Positions 6,584-37,245 of a DNA stretch of 39,655 nt are shown here, one piece after another. Within the stretch, counting starts at the first letter, position 1; every line of letters starts with the position of its first letter. The notes under the pieces are model-generated. The model made no database searches. It had not been told where the DNA came from and saw only the letters and a list, made by a program, of their open reading frames with translations. Made by a program: the position numbers and the translations under genes. The stretch lies in the UHGV virus genome UHGV-0337752; one strand, written 5' to 3'. The stretch comes from a virus.

Positions 6584-7345
6584 ATGAACTATATAGCCTT
6601 GATTAATTCTTTCTGGGATTCAGCCATCCTAAGTCCGTTATCTACAGGGCAGGTGTCGCTTTATATGGCATTATTGCATATAAACAACAGGAGCAACTGG
6701 ATAGAGTGGTTTACAGCGCCGAATCAAGTGCTTTCCGTACTGACGGGACTTTCAAGGTCAGGAATACTGAAAGCGAGAAATGAATTAAAACAAAGAGGGC
6801 TGATTGATTTTAGGGAACGTGGTACAAAGGCAACTGTCTATAAAATTACCACTATGTCAAATAGTACGCAAGATAGTAATCAAAATGGTAATCAAGACAG
6901 TGAACAAGATAGTAATCAAAATTGTGAGCAAAACAGTAGCACATTATATAAACAGAAACAAAAACAGAAACAAAAGAATATAGCTAACGCTATACAAGAA
7001 AGATATGTTTCTGATGATTGCCTGAATGACACAATCATAACTTTTGCTGAATATCGAAAATCAATCAAGGCACCAATGACCCCACATGCAATAGATTTGA
7101 TGTTAAAATCTCTTGAAGAATTAGCGCCAGGGGATGAGAAAACCAAGATAAAAATATTAAATCAATCAATTGTGAATGGATGGAAAGGAGTATTTGCCTT
7201 GAAGGATAAAGAAAAACCCATACAATCTGGTCAACCTAAAAACCAGTTCCATAATTTCGACCAGAGGGACACAGACTATGATGCATTGATGTTAAAACAG
7301 GTAAAAGGCTGGGTAGGGGAGGAACCGCATGAAGGAAATACATAA
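6584..7345 (+). CDS. phage replisome organizer / replication initiation protein
   Basis: The N-terminal segment resembles the phage replisome-organizer N-terminal winged-helix domain. The central low-complexity linker is encoded by direct DNA repeats. Confidence 0.5.
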   Translation: MNYIALINSFWDSAILSPLSTGQVSLYMALLHINNRSNWIEWFTAPNQVLSVLTGLSRSGILKARNELKQRGLIDFRERGTKATVYKITTMSNSTQDSNQNGNQDSEQDSNQNCEQNSSTLYKQKQKQKQKNIANAIQERYVSDDCLNDTIITFAEYRKSIKAPMTPHAIDLMLKSLEELAPGDEKTKIKILNQSIVNGWKGVFALKDKEKPIQSGQPKNQFHNFDQRDTDYDALMLKQVKGWVGEEPHEGNT

Positions 7346-9141: not shown

Positions 9142-10086
9142 ATGCAAAATGAACTGGTTAGAGTAAACATGGAAGAAATAACTACTCTTCCGGCAGAAAG
9201 AAAAGATGATATAAGCCAGCGGAATCAGTACATAATACAATTGTTCCTAGTAAAGAAACGTGACTTAGCGAGAGGGACCAAAGAAAACTATCTTAACGCC
9301 ATACGAAGATTGCTGACAGAGATAAGCACAAAATCACTGGACCAGATGGACACCACAGATATTGATTGGTATTTATCGCGGTATGAAATTAGAAATGTGT
9401 CCAGTGGTGGTAAGAAAAACCAACCCAGCACTTATAATAACGAGCGCCGTTTTCTGTCAGCATTCTTTACATGGATGCGACTGGAAAAATTAATTATAGA
9501 TAATCCTGTAGAACCTATACCAGCTAAAAAGGTGCCAATTAAGCCTATAGACTATTACAGTCCAGAAGAATCAGCAAGACTAAGGGATGCGTGCAAAAAT
9601 ATCCGAGAAAGGGCATTACTAGAGGTTCTGCGTAGCACTGGGGCCAGGATAGGAGAAATTGCAGAAATAACTCTTGACCAGATAGATATGAGGACGGGTG
9701 ATATATTAATACAGGGAGAAAAAGGTGGTAGGTACCGCACTATATATCTGGATGATGATGCAAGATATTATTATGGACTATATTTAGATGGTAGGAAAGA
9801 TGATTGTAAATATATGTTCCCTCGTTCAAGGAAACCCTATGGAAAAATGACTACCTGTGGTTTTCGGTCCATAATAAAATCTATAGGAAAGAGGGCTGGG
9901 CTTACATGTAGGGTTTATCCGCACAAATCTAGAAAAACATTAGGAATGAATCTCAGAAATCATGGTGTAGACATAGGGACCATACAAGAGATTTTTGGAC
10001 ATGCAAGTTCAGAGGTAACAATGAAATTTTATGCCCAGACAGATAATAGAAGATTACGTAGCATTAGGGAACGAGTTAATGTATAG
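9142..10086 (+). CDS. tyrosine recombinase / integrase
   Basis: Catalytic-domain hallmarks: GARIGEI (Arg box), HKSRKT and GHASSEVTMKFYA (H-R-H-Y region). An alternative start exists at 9169. Confidence 0.75.
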   Translation: MQNELVRVNMEEITTLPAERKDDISQRNQYIIQLFLVKKRDLARGTKENYLNAIRRLLTEISTKSLDQMDTTDIDWYLSRYEIRNVSSGGKKNQPSTYNNERRFLSAFFTWMRLEKLIIDNPVEPIPAKKVPIKPIDYYSPEESARLRDACKNIRERALLEVLRSTGARIGEIAEITLDQIDMRTGDILIQGEKGGRYRTIYLDDDARYYYGLYLDGRKDDCKYMFPRSRKPYGKMTTCGFRSIIKSIGKRAGLTCRVYPHKSRKTLGMNLRNHGVDIGTIQEIFGHASSEVTMKFYAQTDNRRLRSIRERVNV

Positions 10087-10097
10087 GAAGGAGGGCC

Positions 10098-10400
10098 ATG
10101 AGAACCAGGGACAAGAACTATAGTGATTATGGCATTACCGATGGCGAAGCCAGACGCATAAAAGAATACTGCCAGACCGCCAGCGTAGAAGATAAGCTAA
10201 CATTGTTCCAGTGCGCCATATCCTCCGCTCCTGGCCTGGAGGTGGAGATATACGAAAGCCTTGTAAGTAATATCGGATATGACAAGATGAGTAAGCGAAA
10301 GAATATACCAATTAAACGGGATGATTTTTACGGGTATCAAAGAAAAACGTTGGATGAATATAGGCGGTTAATGACATTGTTTGGGAGGTGGAAAGGATGA
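10098..10400 (+). CDS. hypothetical protein, 100 aa
   Basis: RBS GGAAGGAGGG before ATG. Between the integrase and the XRE genes. Confidence 0.4.
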   Translation: MRTRDKNYSDYGITDGEARRIKEYCQTASVEDKLTLFQCAISSAPGLEVEIYESLVSNIGYDKMSKRKNIPIKRDDFYGYQRKTLDEYRRLMTLFGRWKG

Positions 10401-10651
10401 CAATTGGTCATATAAAGGCAAGCGAGTTATTACGAATTGGTGATAGCATTCGCATACTAAGAAAAAATAAGGGTTGGACGCAAAAAAAGCTTGCTATCGA
10501 AAGTGGCATTCACGAAGTACAGATTCGTAGATATGAAAATAACCATTCACTTCCCAGAGATGAACAATTGCAAAAGCTTACAAGTGCTTTGGGTGTAGAA
10601 ATAGATTTTTTCACACGAATGGAGAATATACAATATGGCAGGAATCAATAA
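10397..10651 (+). CDS. XRE-family HTH regulator
   Basis: GWTQKKLAIESGIHEVQIRRYENN is an HTH_3 signature. ATG 10397 sits about 10 nt after GGAGG. Confidence 0.6.
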   Translation: MTIGHIKASELLRIGDSIRILRKNKGWTQKKLAIESGIHEVQIRRYENNHSLPRDEQLQKLTSALGVEIDFFTRMENIQYGRNQ

Positions 10652-11078
10652 TTACATAAGAATAGGAAAAAGAATGAAACAAGCAAGGATAAAAACAGGT
10701 ATTTCACAAAAGGAAATGGCAATAAGACTTGGAATATCTCGTTCTTCTTACTCAAATTATGAAAATGAACATAGGGAACCAGACATTAACTTGATATATT
10801 TATTTTGTAAAGAAGTTAGTATGACGATAGATGAATTGATACGGATGGAGTTTATGGCAGTTGGTAAAAACTTCAAAATGAACATTGATACTGGAAAACA
10901 GATAAAAGAAGCAAGAGTAAAAGCAAAATTAACACAAGAAAAGTTGGCAGAAAAAGCAGAGATTTCCGTTTTTACCTTACAGAAATATGAATCAGACGAC
11001 CGGAATCCAAAAATTGAATCATTACAAAAAATAGCAAATGCGTTAGGTATTCCAATTACCAAACTTAAAAGTATGTAA
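10635..11078 (+). CDS. XRE-family regulator with two tandem HTH_3 domains
   Basis: ISQKEMAIRLGISRSSYSNYENEHREP and LTQEKLAEKAEISVFTLQKYESDDRNP. Confidence 0.6.
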   Translation: MAGINNYIRIGKRMKQARIKTGISQKEMAIRLGISRSSYSNYENEHREPDINLIYLFCKEVSMTIDELIRMEFMAVGKNFKMNIDTGKQIKEARVKAKLTQEKLAEKAEISVFTLQKYESDDRNPKIESLQKIANALGIPITKLKSM

Positions 11079-11161: not shown

Positions 11162-11572
11162 GTGGTGATTGTGGCTTCCAGACTGACGGATAAGCAGAAA
11201 AAAGATATTATTGCTGATTATGTAGAGACTGGAAGCTACAATGCTACAGCAAAGAGATTTGGAGTGGCGCTGAACACAGTCAAAAAAATATGCACACAAA
11301 ATGCAGATATTGCACAAAAATGCAAACAAAAAAAGGAACAGAACACAGCGGACATGTTAGCTTATATGGATTCCCGAAAAGAACAGGCGCAGGGAATCAT
11401 TGATGAATATTTAAAGAAGTTAGCAGACCCAAAGAAATTAGAAAACGCTACTATTTCACAAATTGCAACAGCTATGGGAATTGTGGTTGATAAGTTTATG
11501 GATAACACTAAAAGGGGAGATAACACAGAAGGTATTACTATTTTGAATGATATACCAAAGGAAGAAAGGTAG
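11162..11572 (+). CDS. terminase small subunit (HTH-containing)
   Basis: N-terminal HTH LTDKQKKDIIADYVETGSYNATAKRFGVALNTVKKI. Lies immediately upstream of the large terminase. Confidence 0.5.
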   Translation: MVIVASRLTDKQKKDIIADYVETGSYNATAKRFGVALNTVKKICTQNADIAQKCKQKKEQNTADMLAYMDSRKEQAQGIIDEYLKKLADPKKLENATISQIATAMGIVVDKFMDNTKRGDNTEGITILNDIPKEER

Positions 11573-11582
11573 AACAAAGATT

Positions 11583-11986
11583 ATGGGTGAAATTGTTAAA
11601 CTGACTGACGTAATCGCCCCATCCTTCTATGACGTTCACTGGGATATTCTGGACGGTAATCATACATATTACGACCTGTACGGCGGGCGAGGTTCCGCAA
11701 AGTCCTCTTTTATATCAGCGGAGATTGTGCTAGGTATGATGGACGACCCAGAGGCCAATGCTGTTATATTCCGTAAATATGCCGTAACCATTGGAGAATC
11801 AGTATTTGAGCAGATACAGTGGGCCATAGATGCACTGGGAGTAACGGAATTATGGGAATCCCGTACAAGCCCATACCGATTTGTTTATAAGCCGACCGGG
11901 CAAAAGATAATATTCCGTGGACTTGACAAGGCAAAGAAAACAAAATCAATTAAAGCTAGTAAGGGATACTTCAAATATTTGTGGTT
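11583..11986 (+). CDS. terminase large subunit, exon 1 (ATPase, Walker A GGRGSAKS)
   Basis: PBSX/Terminase_3-like N-terminal domain. ATG 11583 follows AAAGGAAGAAAGG. The exon ends ...TATTTGTGGTT at the deduced 5-prime splice site. Confidence 0.65.
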
Positions 11987-12836
11987 AAACACTTCTGACC
12001 ACGTTAAACCCATTAAATTCAGGGAAACTCCTACAAAATAGGACAATCCTGAGCAAAGATTATTCGACATAATATTTAATAAATTCATCTTTTATGGTAT
12101 AATATAATAAACGAATTTAAGGAGAAAATACCATGAAAGAAATTTGGAGAATTATTAAAGGGTTTGAGGACTATGAGATTAGCAATACAGGAAGGGTAAA
12201 AAGTCATAAGCATGGCAGAGAAGTCATTTTAAAGCAAAGAGTATCGCATGATGGTTATGTATGGTACAACTTGTGCATGAATGGCAAACAGTACACAAAG
12301 CGAGCAAATAGGCTTGTGGCTGAGGCTTTTGTTAATAACCCAGAAAATAAACCTACAGTTAATCACATTGATGGAGATAAATCCAATAACAACGCAGACA
12401 ATTTAGAATGGGCTACCCGCGAGGAGCAAATGCAGCATGCTTATGCAAATGGCTTAAAAAAGCCAGTTCGAGGATATTTACAAGGGAATCATGTTTTGAG
12501 CGAAGATGAAGTGAGAGAAATTCGCAGAATTTATAAGGGACATGATAAAGAGTTTGGAATGAACGCTCTAGCAAAAAAATATAATGTAAGTCCTTCTGTA
12601 ATTGATAAATGCGTAAGAAGAAAAAGCTATAAGAATGTCGAATAATAATGTGCAACGACTATCGAAAGGTATGTTATAGAGAAATCTATAACTGAGAACG
12701 AGTAGAGTAAGCCTCAAGTGAGGTTGAAAAAGTGGGGTGAGTGGAATTGATAATAGATTCCATTTACATGATATAGTCTGAACACCATAGTAATATGGTG
12801 AGTGTATACGGAAACGGTATATGCGTAACAAAATTG
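11987..12836 (+). mobile_element. group I intron (about 850 nt) inside the terminase large subunit gene
   Basis: Exon 1 ends with U, which pairs with G of the intron guide GACCAC about 10 nt downstream (P1, U-G pair). The intron ends with G at 12836. Joining the exons restores W-F-EELDEF. The intron carries an HNH homing endonuclease ORF. Confidence 0.6.
12133..12645 (+). CDS. intron-encoded HNH homing endonuclease (NUMOD4 + HNH_3 + C-terminal HTH)
   Basis: FEDYEISNTGRVKS (NUMOD4), VNHIDGDKSNNNADNLEWAT (HNH_3). Own RBS AAGGAGAAAATACC and an upstream promoter-like TATAAT. Confidence 0.75.
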   Translation: MKEIWRIIKGFEDYEISNTGRVKSHKHGREVILKQRVSHDGYVWYNLCMNGKQYTKRANRLVAEAFVNNPENKPTVNHIDGDKSNNNADNLEWATREEQMQHAYANGLKKPVRGYLQGNHVLSEDEVREIRRIYKGHDKEFGMNALAKKYNVSPSVIDKCVRRKSYKNVE

Positions 12837-13674
12837 TGAAGAACTGGATGAATTTGCAGGACCGGAAGAAATACGAACTGTTGAGCAATCAGTATTGCGT
12901 GGTGGCAGCAAGTTTGTTGTATTTAAATCCTTCAACCCGCCTATCAGTCAAAGCAACTGGGCTAATCAGTATGTGAATACTCCAGACGATAGCGCGTATA
13001 GGCATAAAAGCGATTACCGTTCTGTGCCAATTGAATGGCTGGGGGAAATGTTTATTGAGCGCGCTGAACATCTTAAAGCCACCAATGAGCGGGCATACAA
13101 ACACGAGTATTTAGGTTTACCGGTTGGGCTTGGTACAAATATATTTGATATGCTGGATGTGAGGACCATTACGGATGATGAAATCAAGGGATATCAAAGC
13201 ATATACCAGGGGCAAGACTGGGGCTGGTTCCCGGACCCAAAAGCATTTATCAGGGCTGCATACATACCAAACAAGGAATTGGTTGTGTTGCTTGATGAAA
13301 TGGGCGGCTGTAAAATCCGTAATAGTAAGATGGCGGAGTATATACGGGCGGCTGGGTACGATGATTATACAATCTATTGTGGTGTCGATGAAGAAGAAAG
13401 CATTATAGACTTCCGTGACGCTGGTTTACCGGCACGTAAAGCCATTGTAACACCAGGAAGCAGGAAATATACCTTTGAATGGTTGCAGTGCCGTACAATT
13501 GTTATAGACCCGGCACGCACGCCACGGGCATACAAAGAAATCATAGAATATGAGCATGAGGTTGACCGCAACGGTGAGGTGATATCGGATTACCCGGATG
13601 GAAACGACCACTGGATTGATGCACTTCGCTATGCCACAAGCCCATTATCAATGAGAAGGGGGAACAGCGCATGA
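12837..13674 (+). CDS. terminase large subunit, exon 2 (nuclease domain)
   Basis: EELDEFAGPEE...LRGG...SFNPP then QGQDWGW...DGNDHWIDALRYA, the terminase nuclease signature. The frame is open upstream of track ORF 12895. Confidence 0.65.
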
Positions 13675-20713: not shown

Positions 20714-20926
20714 ATGGTAAAGGATGGTTGGGTATATTGCCCCATATGTATCAATAAAACCAGGATAAAAATTCGGCCTGATACAGAGGCTAGAAATTTA
20801 CCAGTATTTTGTCCAAAATGTAAGAATATATCAATTATGGATGTGAATAATTTTAAAGTTCAATTATCAAAATCAATCATTCCTACACCAACGATGTTTG
20901 ATAATACAAAACGGACAGTAAATTAG
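20714..20926 (+). CDS. Cys-rich KTR zinc-ribbon protein, 70 aa
   Basis: CPICINKTRIKIRPDTEARNLPVFCPKCKN: two CxxC pairs plus the KTR motif of the Cys_rich_KTR family. Confidence 0.5.
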   Translation: MVKDGWVYCPICINKTRIKIRPDTEARNLPVFCPKCKNISIMDVNNFKVQLSKSIIPTPTMFDNTKRTVN

Positions 20927-21171
20927 AGCCAGTCGCCAGTCGCAGAGCCATACAGATTACAGCAATGTAGTTTGTGTGGCTTTTTCTTATATTTGACCTC
21001 CCTCCTATAGCACATGTCCTTAAAAGAAACAGGTTCTAGCGCATAGCGTGAACAGCCTGGAGGTTGAAAAGCGGATGCAATTTCCGACATGTGCGTTACC
21101 CCGCCCGTGGTCCATCGGGCTTAATCCATACCTGCGGCGGCAGGTCAATAAACACGACCAGGAGGATAATT

Positions 21172-35986: not shown

Positions 35987-37060
35987 TTACATGCTGTTCA
36001 GTTTTTCAAAGTGCTTATTGATTTTTTTATTCTGCCGGACAGATTCCAGGTCAATTACATTTCTGTATACAGTTTTCATGATATTGTCACTGGCCCATCC
36101 TCCCCGCTGTAAAATATACTGGTCTGGTATCCCTATAGCGTGCATAATGGATGCGGCATAATGCCTGAGGTCGTGGAATCTAAAGTGTGGTATATCAATC
36201 TTTTTAAGTACTCGCCCAAATCTGTGTGTGATGTAATCTGGATTCATATCAACCAGCTTTCCCTTCTTGCCAGATATTCGGTCAATTACAAATGCTGGCA
36301 TTTCTACGTCCCGTGTACTATCATCCGTTTTAGGCTGCTTAATATACCACTGATTGTCTGGCCCCTTGACCATATTGTCTCTTACATGGATAATATGCCC
36401 TTCTACGTTCTTGTATGTCAGGGCGCTTATTTCTCCTCGCCTGAGTGGTCCAAAGGCTGCTAATAATACAGCTATCTCTAAATCAGTACCCTTGATTGCA
36501 TCCAGCAGCTTTTTAATATCGTTGTCGTTTGGGCAGTATAGGTCGGGACGTTTTTTCTGGGGAAGCTTAACTTTTAGAGTTAAATCCGGCGCAAACATTT
36601 CCAATGATGCGGATAATAGTCCATAAGCATTTCTGACTGTCTTTGGAGACAATTTTTTTGCAGCCAAATTACTTACCCATATCTGTACAGATGGATTTGT
36701 TAGCCCTGAGAGCCGTTTCCGCCCAAATGCGCCGCTGAAATACTGTCTTTGCAGACCACGGTACCCTCTGAGCGTAGAAGGGCTTAAAACGCCGCTCTTG
36801 ACGTTTAAATAACGTTCAATAGCATCGTTGACCGTGATATCTTCGTCCTCGTCCTCGTCCGGTTCATTGTATTGCTCGATAGGCTTATCCTTCATATCTA
36901 ATTTCCATCTGGTAGCCATGTCCTTAGCTTTCTTATGTGACGTCGCTACAAAGCTTTTGTAATGCCGTTTTCCTTTTTCATCCGTGTATAGATATAGCTG
37001 ATACCGAACGTTACCAGACGGCAGTTCTCCTGTTTTCTTTTTCGGGGCTTTTTTGGTCAT
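35987..37060 (-). CDS. tyrosine integrase
   Basis: ATG (MTKKAPKKK...) preceded by GAAGGAGGAAGAAAA. Catalytic motifs LRRGEI, HDLRHYAAS and GGWAS...MKTVYRNV. Track ORF is extended upstream to 37129. Confidence 0.8.
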   Translation of the reverse strand: MTKKAPKKKTGELPSGNVRYQLYLYTDEKGKRHYKSFVATSHKKAKDMATRWKLDMKDKPIEQYNEPDEDEDEDITVNDAIERYLNVKSGVLSPSTLRGYRGLQRQYFSGAFGRKRLSGLTNPSVQIWVSNLAAKKLSPKTVRNAYGLLSASLEMFAPDLTLKVKLPQKKRPDLYCPNDNDIKKLLDAIKGTDLEIAVLLAAFGPLRRGEISALTYKNVEGHIIHVRDNMVKGPDNQWYIKQPKTDDSTRDVEMPAFVIDRISGKKGKLVDMNPDYITHRFGRVLKKIDIPHFRFHDLRHYAASIMHAIGIPDQYILQRGGWASDNIMKTVYRNVIDLESVRQNKKINKHFEKLNSM

Positions 37061-37112
37061 TTTTCTTCCTCCTTCATTAATTTTCCTAAAAATAGGTATA
37101 AAAAATACAGCT

Positions 37113-37245
37113 CCGCAAACATCTTGCAAAGCCGCCCCGAAGATGGTACAATATAGGTGCGATTATAGTGCATATCTTCGGGTATGTAGGCCGGTTCCTG
37201 TTGGCGCAGGGGCCGGCTTTTACTTATTTCAAACCAAATTGCGCT
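37113..37245 (+). ncRNA. candidate small RNA: promoter plus about 70-nt transcribed region plus terminator
   Basis: TTGCAA-N17-TGGTACAAT (extended -10) at about 37120-37158. A GC-rich hairpin GGCCGGTTCCTG...CAGGGGCCGG followed by CTTTTACTTATTT at about 37188-37232. No plausible ORF. Confidence 0.3.

Follow-up and report, generated by a model that had tools for sequence, protein, structure and literature searches.

The intron in the thymidylate synthase gene (td) of the virulent coliphage T4 belongs to subgroup IA2, possesses a P2 helix and carries in its P6 loop the open reading frame (ORF) of I-TevI, an endonuclease of the GIY-YIG type, together with a promoter for this ORF. An enzyme of another type, I-HmuI, is encoded by the intron in the DNA polymerase gene of Bacillus phage SPO1; it combines a NUMOD4-like N-terminus with an HNH domain and nicks one strand. 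Group I introns have also been described within the gene for the large subunit of the terminase (terL), namely for Lactobacillus phage LL-H (Mikkonen & Alatossava 1995, as cited in PMC4299906), for Bacillus phage Moonbeam (PMC4299906) and for the Bastillevirinae, where the TerL intron of SIOphi splices both in vitro and in vivo and where the terL introns carry other types of endonuclease, e.g. VSR-like ones (PMC11878797). These reports agree with the preliminary description of the locus analyzed here, in which introns in terL were said to be known from a few Firmicute phages.

The locus resides on a viral DNA of 39,655 nucleotides (UHGV virus genome UHGV-0337752; this whole stretch is referred to as the window), which belongs to a temperate Lachnospiraceae siphophage. 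All features given below lie on the plus strand. We consider it highly probable that positions 11987-12836 represent a mobile, td-like group I intron (subgroup IA, P2-less), situated in the Walker-B codon of a terL gene of the SPP1 type. As in LL-H, Moonbeam and the Bastillevirinae, a group I intron is found in terL of a phage that infects Gram-positive bacteria and, as is often the case there, a homing endonuclease is embedded in it, whereas the host differs in being a temperate phage of gut Lachnospiraceae. Blastn searches with either half of the RNA did not retrieve the introns of LL-H and the Bastillevirinae, so these are not close relatives at the sequence level. The encoded enzyme is homologous to I-HmuI, but host gene and phage are other than in SPO1. 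The window provides a clean example of a type of selfish element that is already well known in phages; a new mechanism is not revealed, group I introns in terL having been documented before in the phages named above.

Introns at the same terL codon, W-F|E-E, were found, unannotated, in the Clostridium perfringens phages vB_CpeP_PMQ04 and CPQ4 (PMQ04 and CPQ4 hereafter), and a further one in the IMG/VR contig L249. All share with the window intron the P2-less core and the 3' tail GUAACAAAAU(U)G. The P6 loop of PMQ04 holds a NUMOD4-HNH gene whose product is 55% identical to that of the window and which lies behind a TGnTATAAT element; the intron of L249, unlike that of the window, is devoid of an ORF. 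In PMQ04 and L249 the frame of exon 1 stops 2 codons into the intron, versus 18 in the window. The RNA of the PMQ04/L249 group is about 70% identical to that of the window and shows many compensatory changes, and between the TerL proteins of the hosts identity drops to only about 41%.

The interrupted terL gene and its empty-site alleles

The upstream ORF (11547/11583-12041) ends with a TAG at 12039-12041 and the downstream frame is open from 12829 on, following a TAA at 12826-12828. Both observations match what had been claimed before, i.e. a stop at 12041 for the ATPase half of TerL and an open frame from about 12830 for the nuclease half, and the same holds for the length of the insert, which at 11987-12836 measures exactly 850 nt. 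When position 11986 is joined to 12837, a frame of 1242 nt is obtained that encodes 413 amino acids plus a stop and contains the junction-spanning peptide ...KYLWFEELDEF.... The 413-residue TerL that had been deduced from this join could be corroborated, as it aligns without gaps and from residue 1 onward with the TerL of the intron-less Dulem virus 35 and is likewise gap-free against about 158 uninterrupted loci. Exon 1 (11583-11986) specifies the N-terminal part of the ATPase, that is residues 1-134 and positions 1 and 2 of codon 135 (Terminase_3, E = 2.9e-22), and exon 2 (12837-13674) specifies the remaining ATPase part, which starts with the Walker-B glutamates, and the RNase-H-like nuclease domain (matches to Terminase_3 and Terminase_3C). 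The insertion point is located inside the Walker-B codon (W-F|E-E) of this SPP1-type TerL (Terminase_3).

The boundaries follow from alleles with an empty site. The alignment with the intron-less homologue L085 proceeds to 11986 and restarts at 12838, and the empty site TATTTGTGGTT|TGAAGAACTGGA is identical in L091, L096 and L097. Across the insertion point L091 reads TATTTGTGGTTTGAAGAACTGGA, and the predicted junction of the spliced exons reads ...UAUUUGUGGUU|UGAAGAACUGG... (...UGGUU|UGAAG... in the RNA). Around 100 other junctions of the U...G kind keep the frame open, but only 11986/12837 reproduces the homologues, base for base.

Splice-site helices and ribozyme core

Helix P1 (11980-12003) connects exon positions 11980-11986 to an internal guide at 11997-12003 by 7 bp and has 11987-11996 as its loop. 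The pairing of UGUGGU(U) with (G)ACCACG, in which U11986·G11997 is the splice-site pair, contains the GUGGU/ACCAC helix with a U-G pair that had been put forward on the basis of the window alone. P10 is made up of CUUC in the P1 loop (11992-11995) and GAAG in exon 2 (12838-12841). The final base of the intron is G12836, in line with the earlier claim of a terminal G, and a G is found at this position in all 11 aligned cores. Among the five distinct sequences compared, P1 is 6-8 bp long with U·G as its last pair, and P10 consists of 3-4 bp in four of them, there being no contiguous P10 in L215; the comparison does not include L233, for which inspection by eye gave no exact 3' splice site. The guide sequence changes along with the exon in L249, LBR48 (a Lactobacillus phage) and L215. 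More explicitly, a G-C pair at position -6 of P1 is replaced by U-A in L249, and P10 reads UGAG/CUCA there. In the relatives, the predicted helices P1 and P10 vary in concert with the exons.

The intron is composed of about 270 nt of ribozyme and a 579-nt P6 loop (12065-12643) with the endonuclease gene. The 5' core (12002-12064) contains the 5' strand of P3 (12009-12014; 3' strand 12731-12736), P4 (12019-12024/12047-12052), P5 (12029-12033/12039-12043) and the 5' strands of P6 (12053-12055) and P6a (about 12060-12064). The 3' core (12644-12836) extends from the 3' strands of P6a and P6 (12644-12651) to the terminal G and includes P7 (12657-12662/12773-12778), P7.1 (12673-12680/12685-12692), P7.2 (12710-12715/12720-12725), P8 (12737-12748/12756-12767), P9 (12783-12789/12794-12800) and P9.1 (12802-12809/12817-12824), the latter with the loop GGAAACG. 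P2 is absent, just UUAAA (12004-12008) separating P1 from P3, and the same P2-less spacing is seen in L249, PMQ04, LBR48 and L215. The P7.1 and P7.2 hairpins (12673-12692 and 12710-12725) follow P7 (12657-12662) and precede the 3' strand of P3, an arrangement that Michel and Westhof reportedly used in 1990 to define subgroup IA. The td intron has these two hairpins at the same place and its endonuclease ORF looped out from P6 in the same way, and the motifs GUGCAACGACUAU... and GAUAUAGUCU are common to both introns. The window intron is assigned by its architecture, which is td-like and of subgroup IA. Considering the absence of P2, we file the intron as IA-like and P2-less and not as a canonical member of IA2. 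A first reading, derived from an Rfam half hit, had placed the 5' strand of P7 at AGAUUAU (about 12058) and the ORF in P8, and was dropped; comparison with RIO-1 and other relatives identifies GACUAU (12657-12662) as the 5' strand of P7 and shows that P6 is the helix holding the ORF.

A search with the group I intron model RF00028 had been suggested as a check, and on the intact window its outcome is nominally negative: no match was obtained at the gathering score (50 bits), and a 1-kb search yielded two half matches below the threshold, one of 22.1 bits (E = 0.0037) and one of 26.6 bits (E = 0.00017). The model misses the intact intron because the 579-nt ORF-bearing loop interrupts P6, and this insertion explains why the outcome is not evidence against an intron. 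Relatives that share the core pass the model at 51-94 bits, and the ORF-less intron of L249 does so at 81.8 bits. Two family-specific covariance half-models, R1 and R2, which were built with exclusion of the window sequence, each gave a single match in the window, at 12002-12058 (R1; 59.1 bits, E = 5.6e-11) and at 12647-12802 (R2; 116.5 bits, E = 1.1e-27). Neither these models nor other searches revealed a second copy of the intron in the window.

Covariation was evaluated for 51 pairs in 11 related aligned cores, with slid partners and 500 shuffles as controls. The predicted pairs were formed in 98.6% of the cells of these 11 cores versus 35-47% when the partners were slid, and compensatory double changes were present in 37 of the 51 pairs. 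The covariation score amounted to 0.758 versus at most 0.134 for the controls and was reached by none of the 500 shuffles. P7.2 covaries in all six of its pairs, and P7.1 and P8 are formed by each of the members compared; P7 has no covariation support because it is invariant in the comparison set. An independent prediction by RNAalifold returned P3, P4, P5, P6, P6a, P7.2, P9 and P9.1, and the unconstrained minimum free energy fold of the RNA from which the ORF had been deleted contained P1 and all other helices, only the P7 pseudoknot being missed (z = -5.5). As judged from these comparisons, the two stretches of RNA that flank the ORF make up a group I core, and the half-models, the covariation and the passing of RF00028 by ORF-less relatives all support the group I interpretation of the preliminary description.

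Given this structure, we propose that the RNA would fold into the P1-P9.1 core after transcription, and that an external guanosine would attack after U11986, which would be held in P1 through U·G pairing to G11997. Once released, exon 1 would attack after the terminal G12836, with P10 aligning exon 2, and ligation of the exons would join TT|T to give the mRNA for the 413-residue TerL.

The endonuclease gene and the spread of the intron

The gene in the P6 loop (12133-12645) encodes a predicted homing endonuclease of 170 amino acids with a NUMOD4 domain (47.5 bits; cut-off 23.4), an HNH_3 domain (38.4 bits; cut-off 24.8) and a C-terminal helix-turn-helix-like region, and its stop codon falls in the 3' strand of P6a. 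The product matches phrog_59 (E = 6.8e-52), a cluster to which I-HmuI-like enzymes encoded in introns have been assigned (PMC11878797). It also matches I-HmuI itself (PDB 1U3E; E = 1.3e-14, residues 5-107), and together these similarities confirm the NUMOD4-HNH_3 endonuclease noted earlier and place the predicted enzyme in the family of I-HmuI-type HNH endonucleases. In the alignment with I-HmuI, His78 and Asn90 correspond to His75 and Asn87, while Asn77 is found at the position of Asp74 and Gln99 at that of Asn96. Asn96 is reportedly a metal ligand in I-HmuI. With Gln at this position, the predicted endonuclease may or may not be catalytically competent, which counts against the explanation that we prefer.

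The P6 loop also contains putative expression signals (12076-12124), recognized by their match to the consensus. A -35-like TTAATA (12076-12081), a spacing of 16 nt and an extended -10 element TGgTATAAT (12095-12103) make up a candidate promoter (12076-12103) with 10 out of 12 matches plus the TG, and a Shine-Dalgarno sequence, AAGGAG (12119-12124), is located 8 nt upstream of the ATG. A TGnTATAAT element is found at the equivalent place in the introns of PMQ04, L233 and L215, and in 5 of the 7 other copies of the window intron the -10 box reads TACAAT. Promoter-like sites are not enriched over the region as a whole (4 found versus 6.1 expected from shuffled sequence). Of the promoter and ribosome-binding site attributed to the gene in the preliminary description, the AAGGAG and the consensus match of the promoter could be retrieved, but the region is no richer in such sites than shuffled sequence. 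The endonuclease gene is probably transcribed from this extended -10 promoter of its own.

The distribution of the insert is sporadic, as it was present in 1 out of 79 genome loci and in none of the best 80 viral loci, in a ranking by match length that disfavours split genes; one additional copy (L262) was recovered with a motif scan. In all, at least 10 independent contigs carry the intron, and their terL exons are divergent and intact. Compared with the copy in L024, the intron is 99.2% identical, versus 85-92% for the exons, and a zone free of mismatches (11946-12848) reaches into the flanking exons. At 95% identity the intron is also found in terL alleles that are merely 71-78% identical, so that overall it is 95-99% identical across terL alleles that are 71-92% identical to that of the window. 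The near-identity of the intron in divergent terL genes and the mismatch-free exon flanks indicate recent homing, and the intron is apparently still spreading. The separate gene in the P6 loop would provide the I-HmuI-type NUMOD4-HNH endonuclease, which would nick or cut an intron-less terL near the insertion site upon co-infection or when prophage and phage meet. Repair would then copy the intron, together with short flanks of the exons, into the cut allele.

Alternative explanations and the wider lineage

The evidence given above can be read in other ways. In a variant of the explanation that we prefer, the group I intron is not autonomous and folds only with the help of a protein, of the phage or of the host, or of ongoing translation. 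Several predicted group I introns of the Bastillevirinae, among which one in a terminase gene, were found to be spliced in vivo and not in vitro (PMC11878797). Folding of the window intron could similarly be dependent on context, either through the absence of P2 or through the frame of exon 1, which covers P1-P5 and 18 intron codons until it reaches the stop at 12039-12041; ribosomes following this frame could interfere with folding, a point that is to be counted against the preferred explanation as well. Nevertheless, every core helix is intact and, in the sequence taken singly, thermodynamically favoured, and the window by definition conserves all 68 columns without variation among the 11 aligned cores. 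Such a dependence on other factors seems rather unlikely to us. In another reading, the intron has decayed and lost its ability to splice, and terL is a pseudogene in a defective prophage. This reading might appeal to the sub-threshold RF00028 score of the intact sequence and to splicing being a prediction. Against it, the codon differences in exon 2 between intron-bearing phages comprise 63 synonymous versus 13 non-synonymous ones, and exon 2 is by this measure under purifying selection. Moreover, the endonuclease ORF is intact, with 170 codons, in all eight copies examined; three out of four helix substitutions among the intron copies keep the pairing (a substitution at 12759 in divergent copies breaks one pair of P8); the terL exons in the other contigs are intact; and strong matches to their families, over the full length, were obtained for the head genes tested nearby (portal, minor head, scaffold and major head). 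We regard decay as very improbable.

The annotation of PMQ04, CPQ4 and LBR48 in GenBank, which shows two terL CDSs around the endonuclease gene and no intron, suggests yet another organization, namely a free-standing endonuclease gene that splits terL into two cooperating polypeptides. However, the break falls within the Walker-B codon, exon 2 lacks a start codon before the TTG at 12895 as well as a detectable Shine-Dalgarno sequence, and the 337 nt around the ORF constitute a covarying group I core. An intein is excluded, since a stop at 12039 interrupts the frame and no Hint domain is present. As to a group II intron, none was found, apart from a chance match of 18 bits on the opposite strand, and neither was a reverse transcriptase. 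To these three possibilities taken together we attach hardly any weight.

The mobile group I intron that we favour has relatives elsewhere in terL. The introns of LBR48, L281 and L215 belong to the same ribozyme subfamily and likewise reside in this gene. The LBR48 group is about 71% identical in the 3' domain and has the same P9.1 loop and tail. The site in LBR48 lies about 22 codons upstream, at G-L|D, and that of L215 is G-M-D|K, and the guides match the respective sites; the P6 endonuclease of LBR48 is of the GIY-YIG type versus HNH in the window. With L233, which is inserted nearby, the lineage is present at three or four terL positions at least (W-F|E-E in the window, PMQ04 and L249; G-L|D; G-M-D|K). 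Tentatively, and with more doubt than confidence, one may view this P2-less td-like lineage, with its GGAAACG P9.1 loop and GUAACAnAAUUG tail, as a scaffold that can be re-targeted within terL, the internal guide of which may match the local exon at each position and the P6-loop endonuclease cassette of which may be exchanged between the HNH and GIY-YIG types. If true, this would imply site switching by reverse splicing or by exchange of the endonuclease, and not simple homing. More speculatively, splicing, and hence the supply of TerL, might be tuned by translation via the 18-codon extension of exon 1 into the intron.

A terL gene with such an intron would be annotated as two fragments or as a pseudogene, and TerL-based detection and phylogeny of phages would then miss or misplace the genomes concerned. 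Given that empty, occupied, ORF-less same-codon and re-targeted sites are all at hand for comparison, the intron represents a well-resolved case in Lachnospiraceae phages of the human and animal gut, and a convenient system for the study of homing between temperate phages and of the co-evolution of guide and endonuclease. The ribozyme subfamily also has members in L181, L230, L261 and L282.

The interrupted terL gene

The preliminary description had placed a split in the gene for the terminase large subunit (terL), and this observation was confirmed, including the splice junction and the length of the insert. The ORF running from ATG 11583 to TAG 12039-12041 matched the N-terminal part of Terminase_3 in Pfam (E = 2.9e-22), and the frame open over 12829-13674 matched the C-terminal part of the same family as well as Terminase_3C. 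Joining 11986 to 12837 results in 1242 nt encoding a protein of 413 aa (...GYFKYLW-F-EELDEFAG...). In Dulem virus 35 TerL is uninterrupted, and the joined product aligns with it without gaps at 82% identity, all 16 residues around the junction being the same. An uninterrupted terL was found in all but one of 159 loci with relatives in scans of genome and viral collections (79 genome loci and the best 80 viral loci, the latter ranked by match length, which disfavours split genes). The empty site in three compared loci (L091, L096 and L097) is exactly TATTTGTGGTT followed directly by TGAAGAACTGGA, and the alignment with the intron-less locus L085 (91% nucleotide identity) reaches 11986 and restarts at 12838. 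Around 100 alternative U...G junctions also keep the frame open; none of them reproduces the homologues. Given that homologues and empty sites fix the junction at 11986/12837, the insert comprises 11987-12836 (850 nt). It splits codon 135 (TT/T), beside the Walker-B glutamates, and the spliced TerL is SPP1-type (39% identity to SPP1 G2P).

Evidence for a group I ribozyme

The interpretation of the insert as a group I intron was supported, although the check that had been proposed for it, a search with the Rfam model RF00028, gave no match on the intact window at the gathering score (50 bits). On a 1-kb slice two sub-threshold half matches appeared, one to the P1 to P6 region (11977-12149, 22.1 bits) and one to the 3' core (12653-12800, 26.6 bits), a pattern that is expected as a long ORF interrupts one of the loops. 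Four independent lines of sequence analysis, namely homology, half-models, covariation and thermodynamics, settle the identity of the insert as a predicted group I intron. A blastn search with the RNA-only parts retrieved an intron of Pseudoalteromonas phage RIO-1, annotated as 'group I mobile intron', and similar elements; the RIO-1 intron has no ORF, and RF00028 gives it 56.8 bits. At least 120 viral contigs contain the core motif GACTATCGAAAG...GAGTAGAGTA, and ORF-less family members score 51-94 bits. One of these, in contig L249, lies at the same terL codon and scores 81.8 bits, while its TerL is only 41% identical to that of the window. Covariance models were also made for each half, 5' and 3', from nine relatives, with neither the window nor its near-identical copy among them. 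In the 39.6-kb window the 5' model matched only 12002-12058 (59.1 bits, E = 5.6e-11) and the 3' model only 12647-12802 (116.5 bits, E = 1.1e-27), with no further match below E = 1.

For covariation, 11 ORF-deleted cores were aligned. Unaided, RNAalifold predicted P3, P4, P5, P6, P6a, P7.2, P9 and P9.1. In the full model, which includes the P7 pseudoknot, 98.6% of the cells hold standard pairs, versus 35-47% in slid controls, with partners shifted by 1-3 columns; changes on both sides were seen in 37 of the 51 pairs (11-15 in the slid controls), and the covariation score was 0.758 versus at most 0.134. None of 500 shuffles reached the observed values. P7 (GACUAU/AUAGUC) is uninformative in this respect because it is invariant, and P7.1 and P8 could not be scored by column since their length varies, but each folds as a hairpin in every member of the set. 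The unconstrained minimum free energy fold of the ORF-deleted window RNA recovered P1, P3, P4, P5, P6/P6a, P7.1, P7.2, P8, P9 and P9.1 (z-score -5.5 versus 200 shuffles).

The helices at the splice sites agree with the P1 that had been proposed, including its U·G, and with the terminal intron G. P1 comprises 7 bp between 11980-11986 and 11997-12003, the last of them U11986·G11997, P10 pairs GAAG 12838-12841 with CUUC 11992-11995, and the last intron base is G12836, as it is a G in all 11 cores. The guide follows the exon in L249 (P1 CUUGGUU/GACCAAG, P10 UGAG/CUCA), in Lactobacillus phage LBR48 (CGUGGGU/GCCCACG) and in contig L215 (AUGGAU/GUCCAU), and the sole P1 change in divergent copies of the window intron (A11998 to G) replaces U-A by U·G. 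The helices follow in the order P1, P3, P4, P5, P6/P6a (with the ORF as loop), P7, P7.1, P7.2, P3', P8, P7', P9 and P9.1, an arrangement that we take to be that of phage introns in subgroup IA, among them T4 td, the comparison being one of layout. P2 is missing, P1 and P3 being separated by UUAAA alone, and the intron is therefore called IA-like and P2-less, not canonical IA2.

The endonuclease gene and expression of the split gene

The ORF between the terL parts (12133-12645) encodes 170 aa with NUMOD4 and HNH_3 domains, both over the Pfam cut-offs, in agreement with the endonuclease assigned before; its stop codon sits within the 3' strand of P6a. Residues 5-107 match I-HmuI (PDB 1U3E; E = 1.3e-14), an HNH enzyme that nicks DNA and is encoded in the DNA-polymerase intron of SPO1. 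His78 and Asn90 align to His75 and Asn87 of I-HmuI, but given that Gln99 takes the position of Asn96, the product is a predicted endonuclease of unproven catalytic competence. A second match of the product is to phrog_59 (E = 6.8e-52), to which NUMOD4/I-HmuI-like enzymes encoded in introns of Bastillevirinae have been reported to belong (PMC11878797). As to the promoter and ribosome-binding site ascribed to this gene, AAGGAG is present at 12119-12124 and TTAATA, a 16-nt spacer and TGgTATAAT at 12076-12103, but the latter is a consensus match only, as promoter-like sites were not in excess in a scan of the region. The introns of Clostridium perfringens phage PMQ04, L233 and L215, otherwise little similar, have TGnTATAAT at the corresponding position. 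At 12100 the putative -10 box is polymorphic: the window, L286 and L292 have TATAAT, and TACAAT is present in L024, L285, L288, L289 and L290, which are five of the seven other copies.

Considering other readings of the insert, an intein was ruled out because the frame contains a stop and no Hint domain is present, and a group II intron because neither a model match nor a reverse transcriptase was found. That the intron is dead is argued against by exon 2, in which the intron-bearing phages compared differ by 63 synonymous versus 13 non-synonymous codons. A split gene yielding two polypeptides is in turn difficult to reconcile with an exon 2 that has no in-frame start before TTG 12895 and no Shine-Dalgarno sequence. 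On basis of these three features, exon 2 is probably translated from a spliced mRNA. The exon-1 frame runs on for 18 codons in the intron (11987-12041), across P1, P3, P4 and P5 up to the TAG, so ribosomes might compete with folding and coupled translation may affect the ribozyme; the PMQ04 and L249 introns, at the same site, have a UAA 2 codons past the splice site. For some phage introns, splicing has been reported in vivo only (PMC11878797).

Distribution of the intron and its relatives

The same intron was found in nine further contigs: L024 (a Dorea MAG), L262 and seven more metagenome contigs, an eighth (L287) being left out as an apparent duplicate of L024. Between the window and L024, 7 of the 850 intron positions differ, whereas the exons are 85-92% identical; the mismatch-free stretch, 11946-12848, resembles a co-conversion tract. 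L286 and L292 share the junction and have a 95% identical intron, versus only 71-78% for the terL exons, and L291 (terL ~72% identical) holds only the last 43 nt. Over the eight full-length copies, 35 of the 45 variable sites fall within the 513-nt ORF, which is intact (170 aa) in all eight, and three of the four substitutions located in helices keep the pair. The low intron versus high exon divergence, the intact ORF and the kept pairs form a signature of a horizontally spreading element, of which both RNA and protein would be under selection.

HNH and GIY-YIG endonucleases encoded in loops of group I introns are well established in phages. The ribozyme subfamily, marked by a GGAAACG loop in P9.1 and the tail GUAACAnAAUUG, recurs ~22 codons upstream in terL of LBR48 and L281, between G-M-D and K in L215, and close to the window's site in L233. 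Where the splice site is readable (LBR48 and L215) the guide matches the local exon; L233, with an ambiguous 3' splice site, was left out of this comparison. The LBR48 intron (GU967410.1, about 1807-2622), at a different codon, carries a GIY-YIG gene in P6, unlike the HNH gene of the window. The related PMQ04 intron spans 1119-1929 of MZ995505.1. For PMQ04, CPQ4 and LBR48, GenBank annotates two terL CDSs flanking an endonuclease, and no intron. As had been noted, terL introns are known: in Lactobacillus phage LL-H (Mikkonen & Alatossava 1995, as cited in PMC4299906), in Bacillus phage Moonbeam (PMC4299906) and in 5 of 52 terL genes of Bastillevirinae, with splicing shown for SIOphi (PMC11878797). 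The window intron is a cleanly resolved addition to these, with predicted splicing and endonuclease activity.

In several viral contigs, a stretch of 1-3 kb holds three RF00028-positive introns: L177 (6169-6444, 6458-6741, 8491-8763), L181 (minus strand; 7040-7326, 9466-9744, 9831-10153), L187 (2023-2292, 2400-2649, 3198-3517) and L282 (minus strand; 387-696, 753-1034, 2265-2501). Some lie only ~15-60 nt apart, which would imply either that the internal exons are very short or that one gene contains introns in tandem.

The window represents a temperate siphophage with an integrase (35987-37129, minus strand), XRE-type regulators and portal, minor head, scaffold and major head genes; among the matches listed, the closest terL alleles are from Lachnospiraceae genomes (Enterocloster, Dorea). 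A pair of neighbouring XRE-type helix-turn-helix regulator genes (10388-11078, plus strand), of which one has its HTH duplicated, lies directly 5' of the gene in the small-terminase position (11162-11572), for which no PHROG match was found. Between phrog_28802 and the scaffold gene, a small ORF (20716-20928, plus strand, ~70 aa) encodes two CxxC pairs (CPIC...CPKC), like a zinc ribbon. It directly precedes an intergenic RAGATH-21 motif (RF03097; 21009-21095, plus strand; 83.8 bits, gathering score 70.3, E = 4.6e-15), located just 5' of the head scaffolding gene (ATG 21173) and the major head gene.
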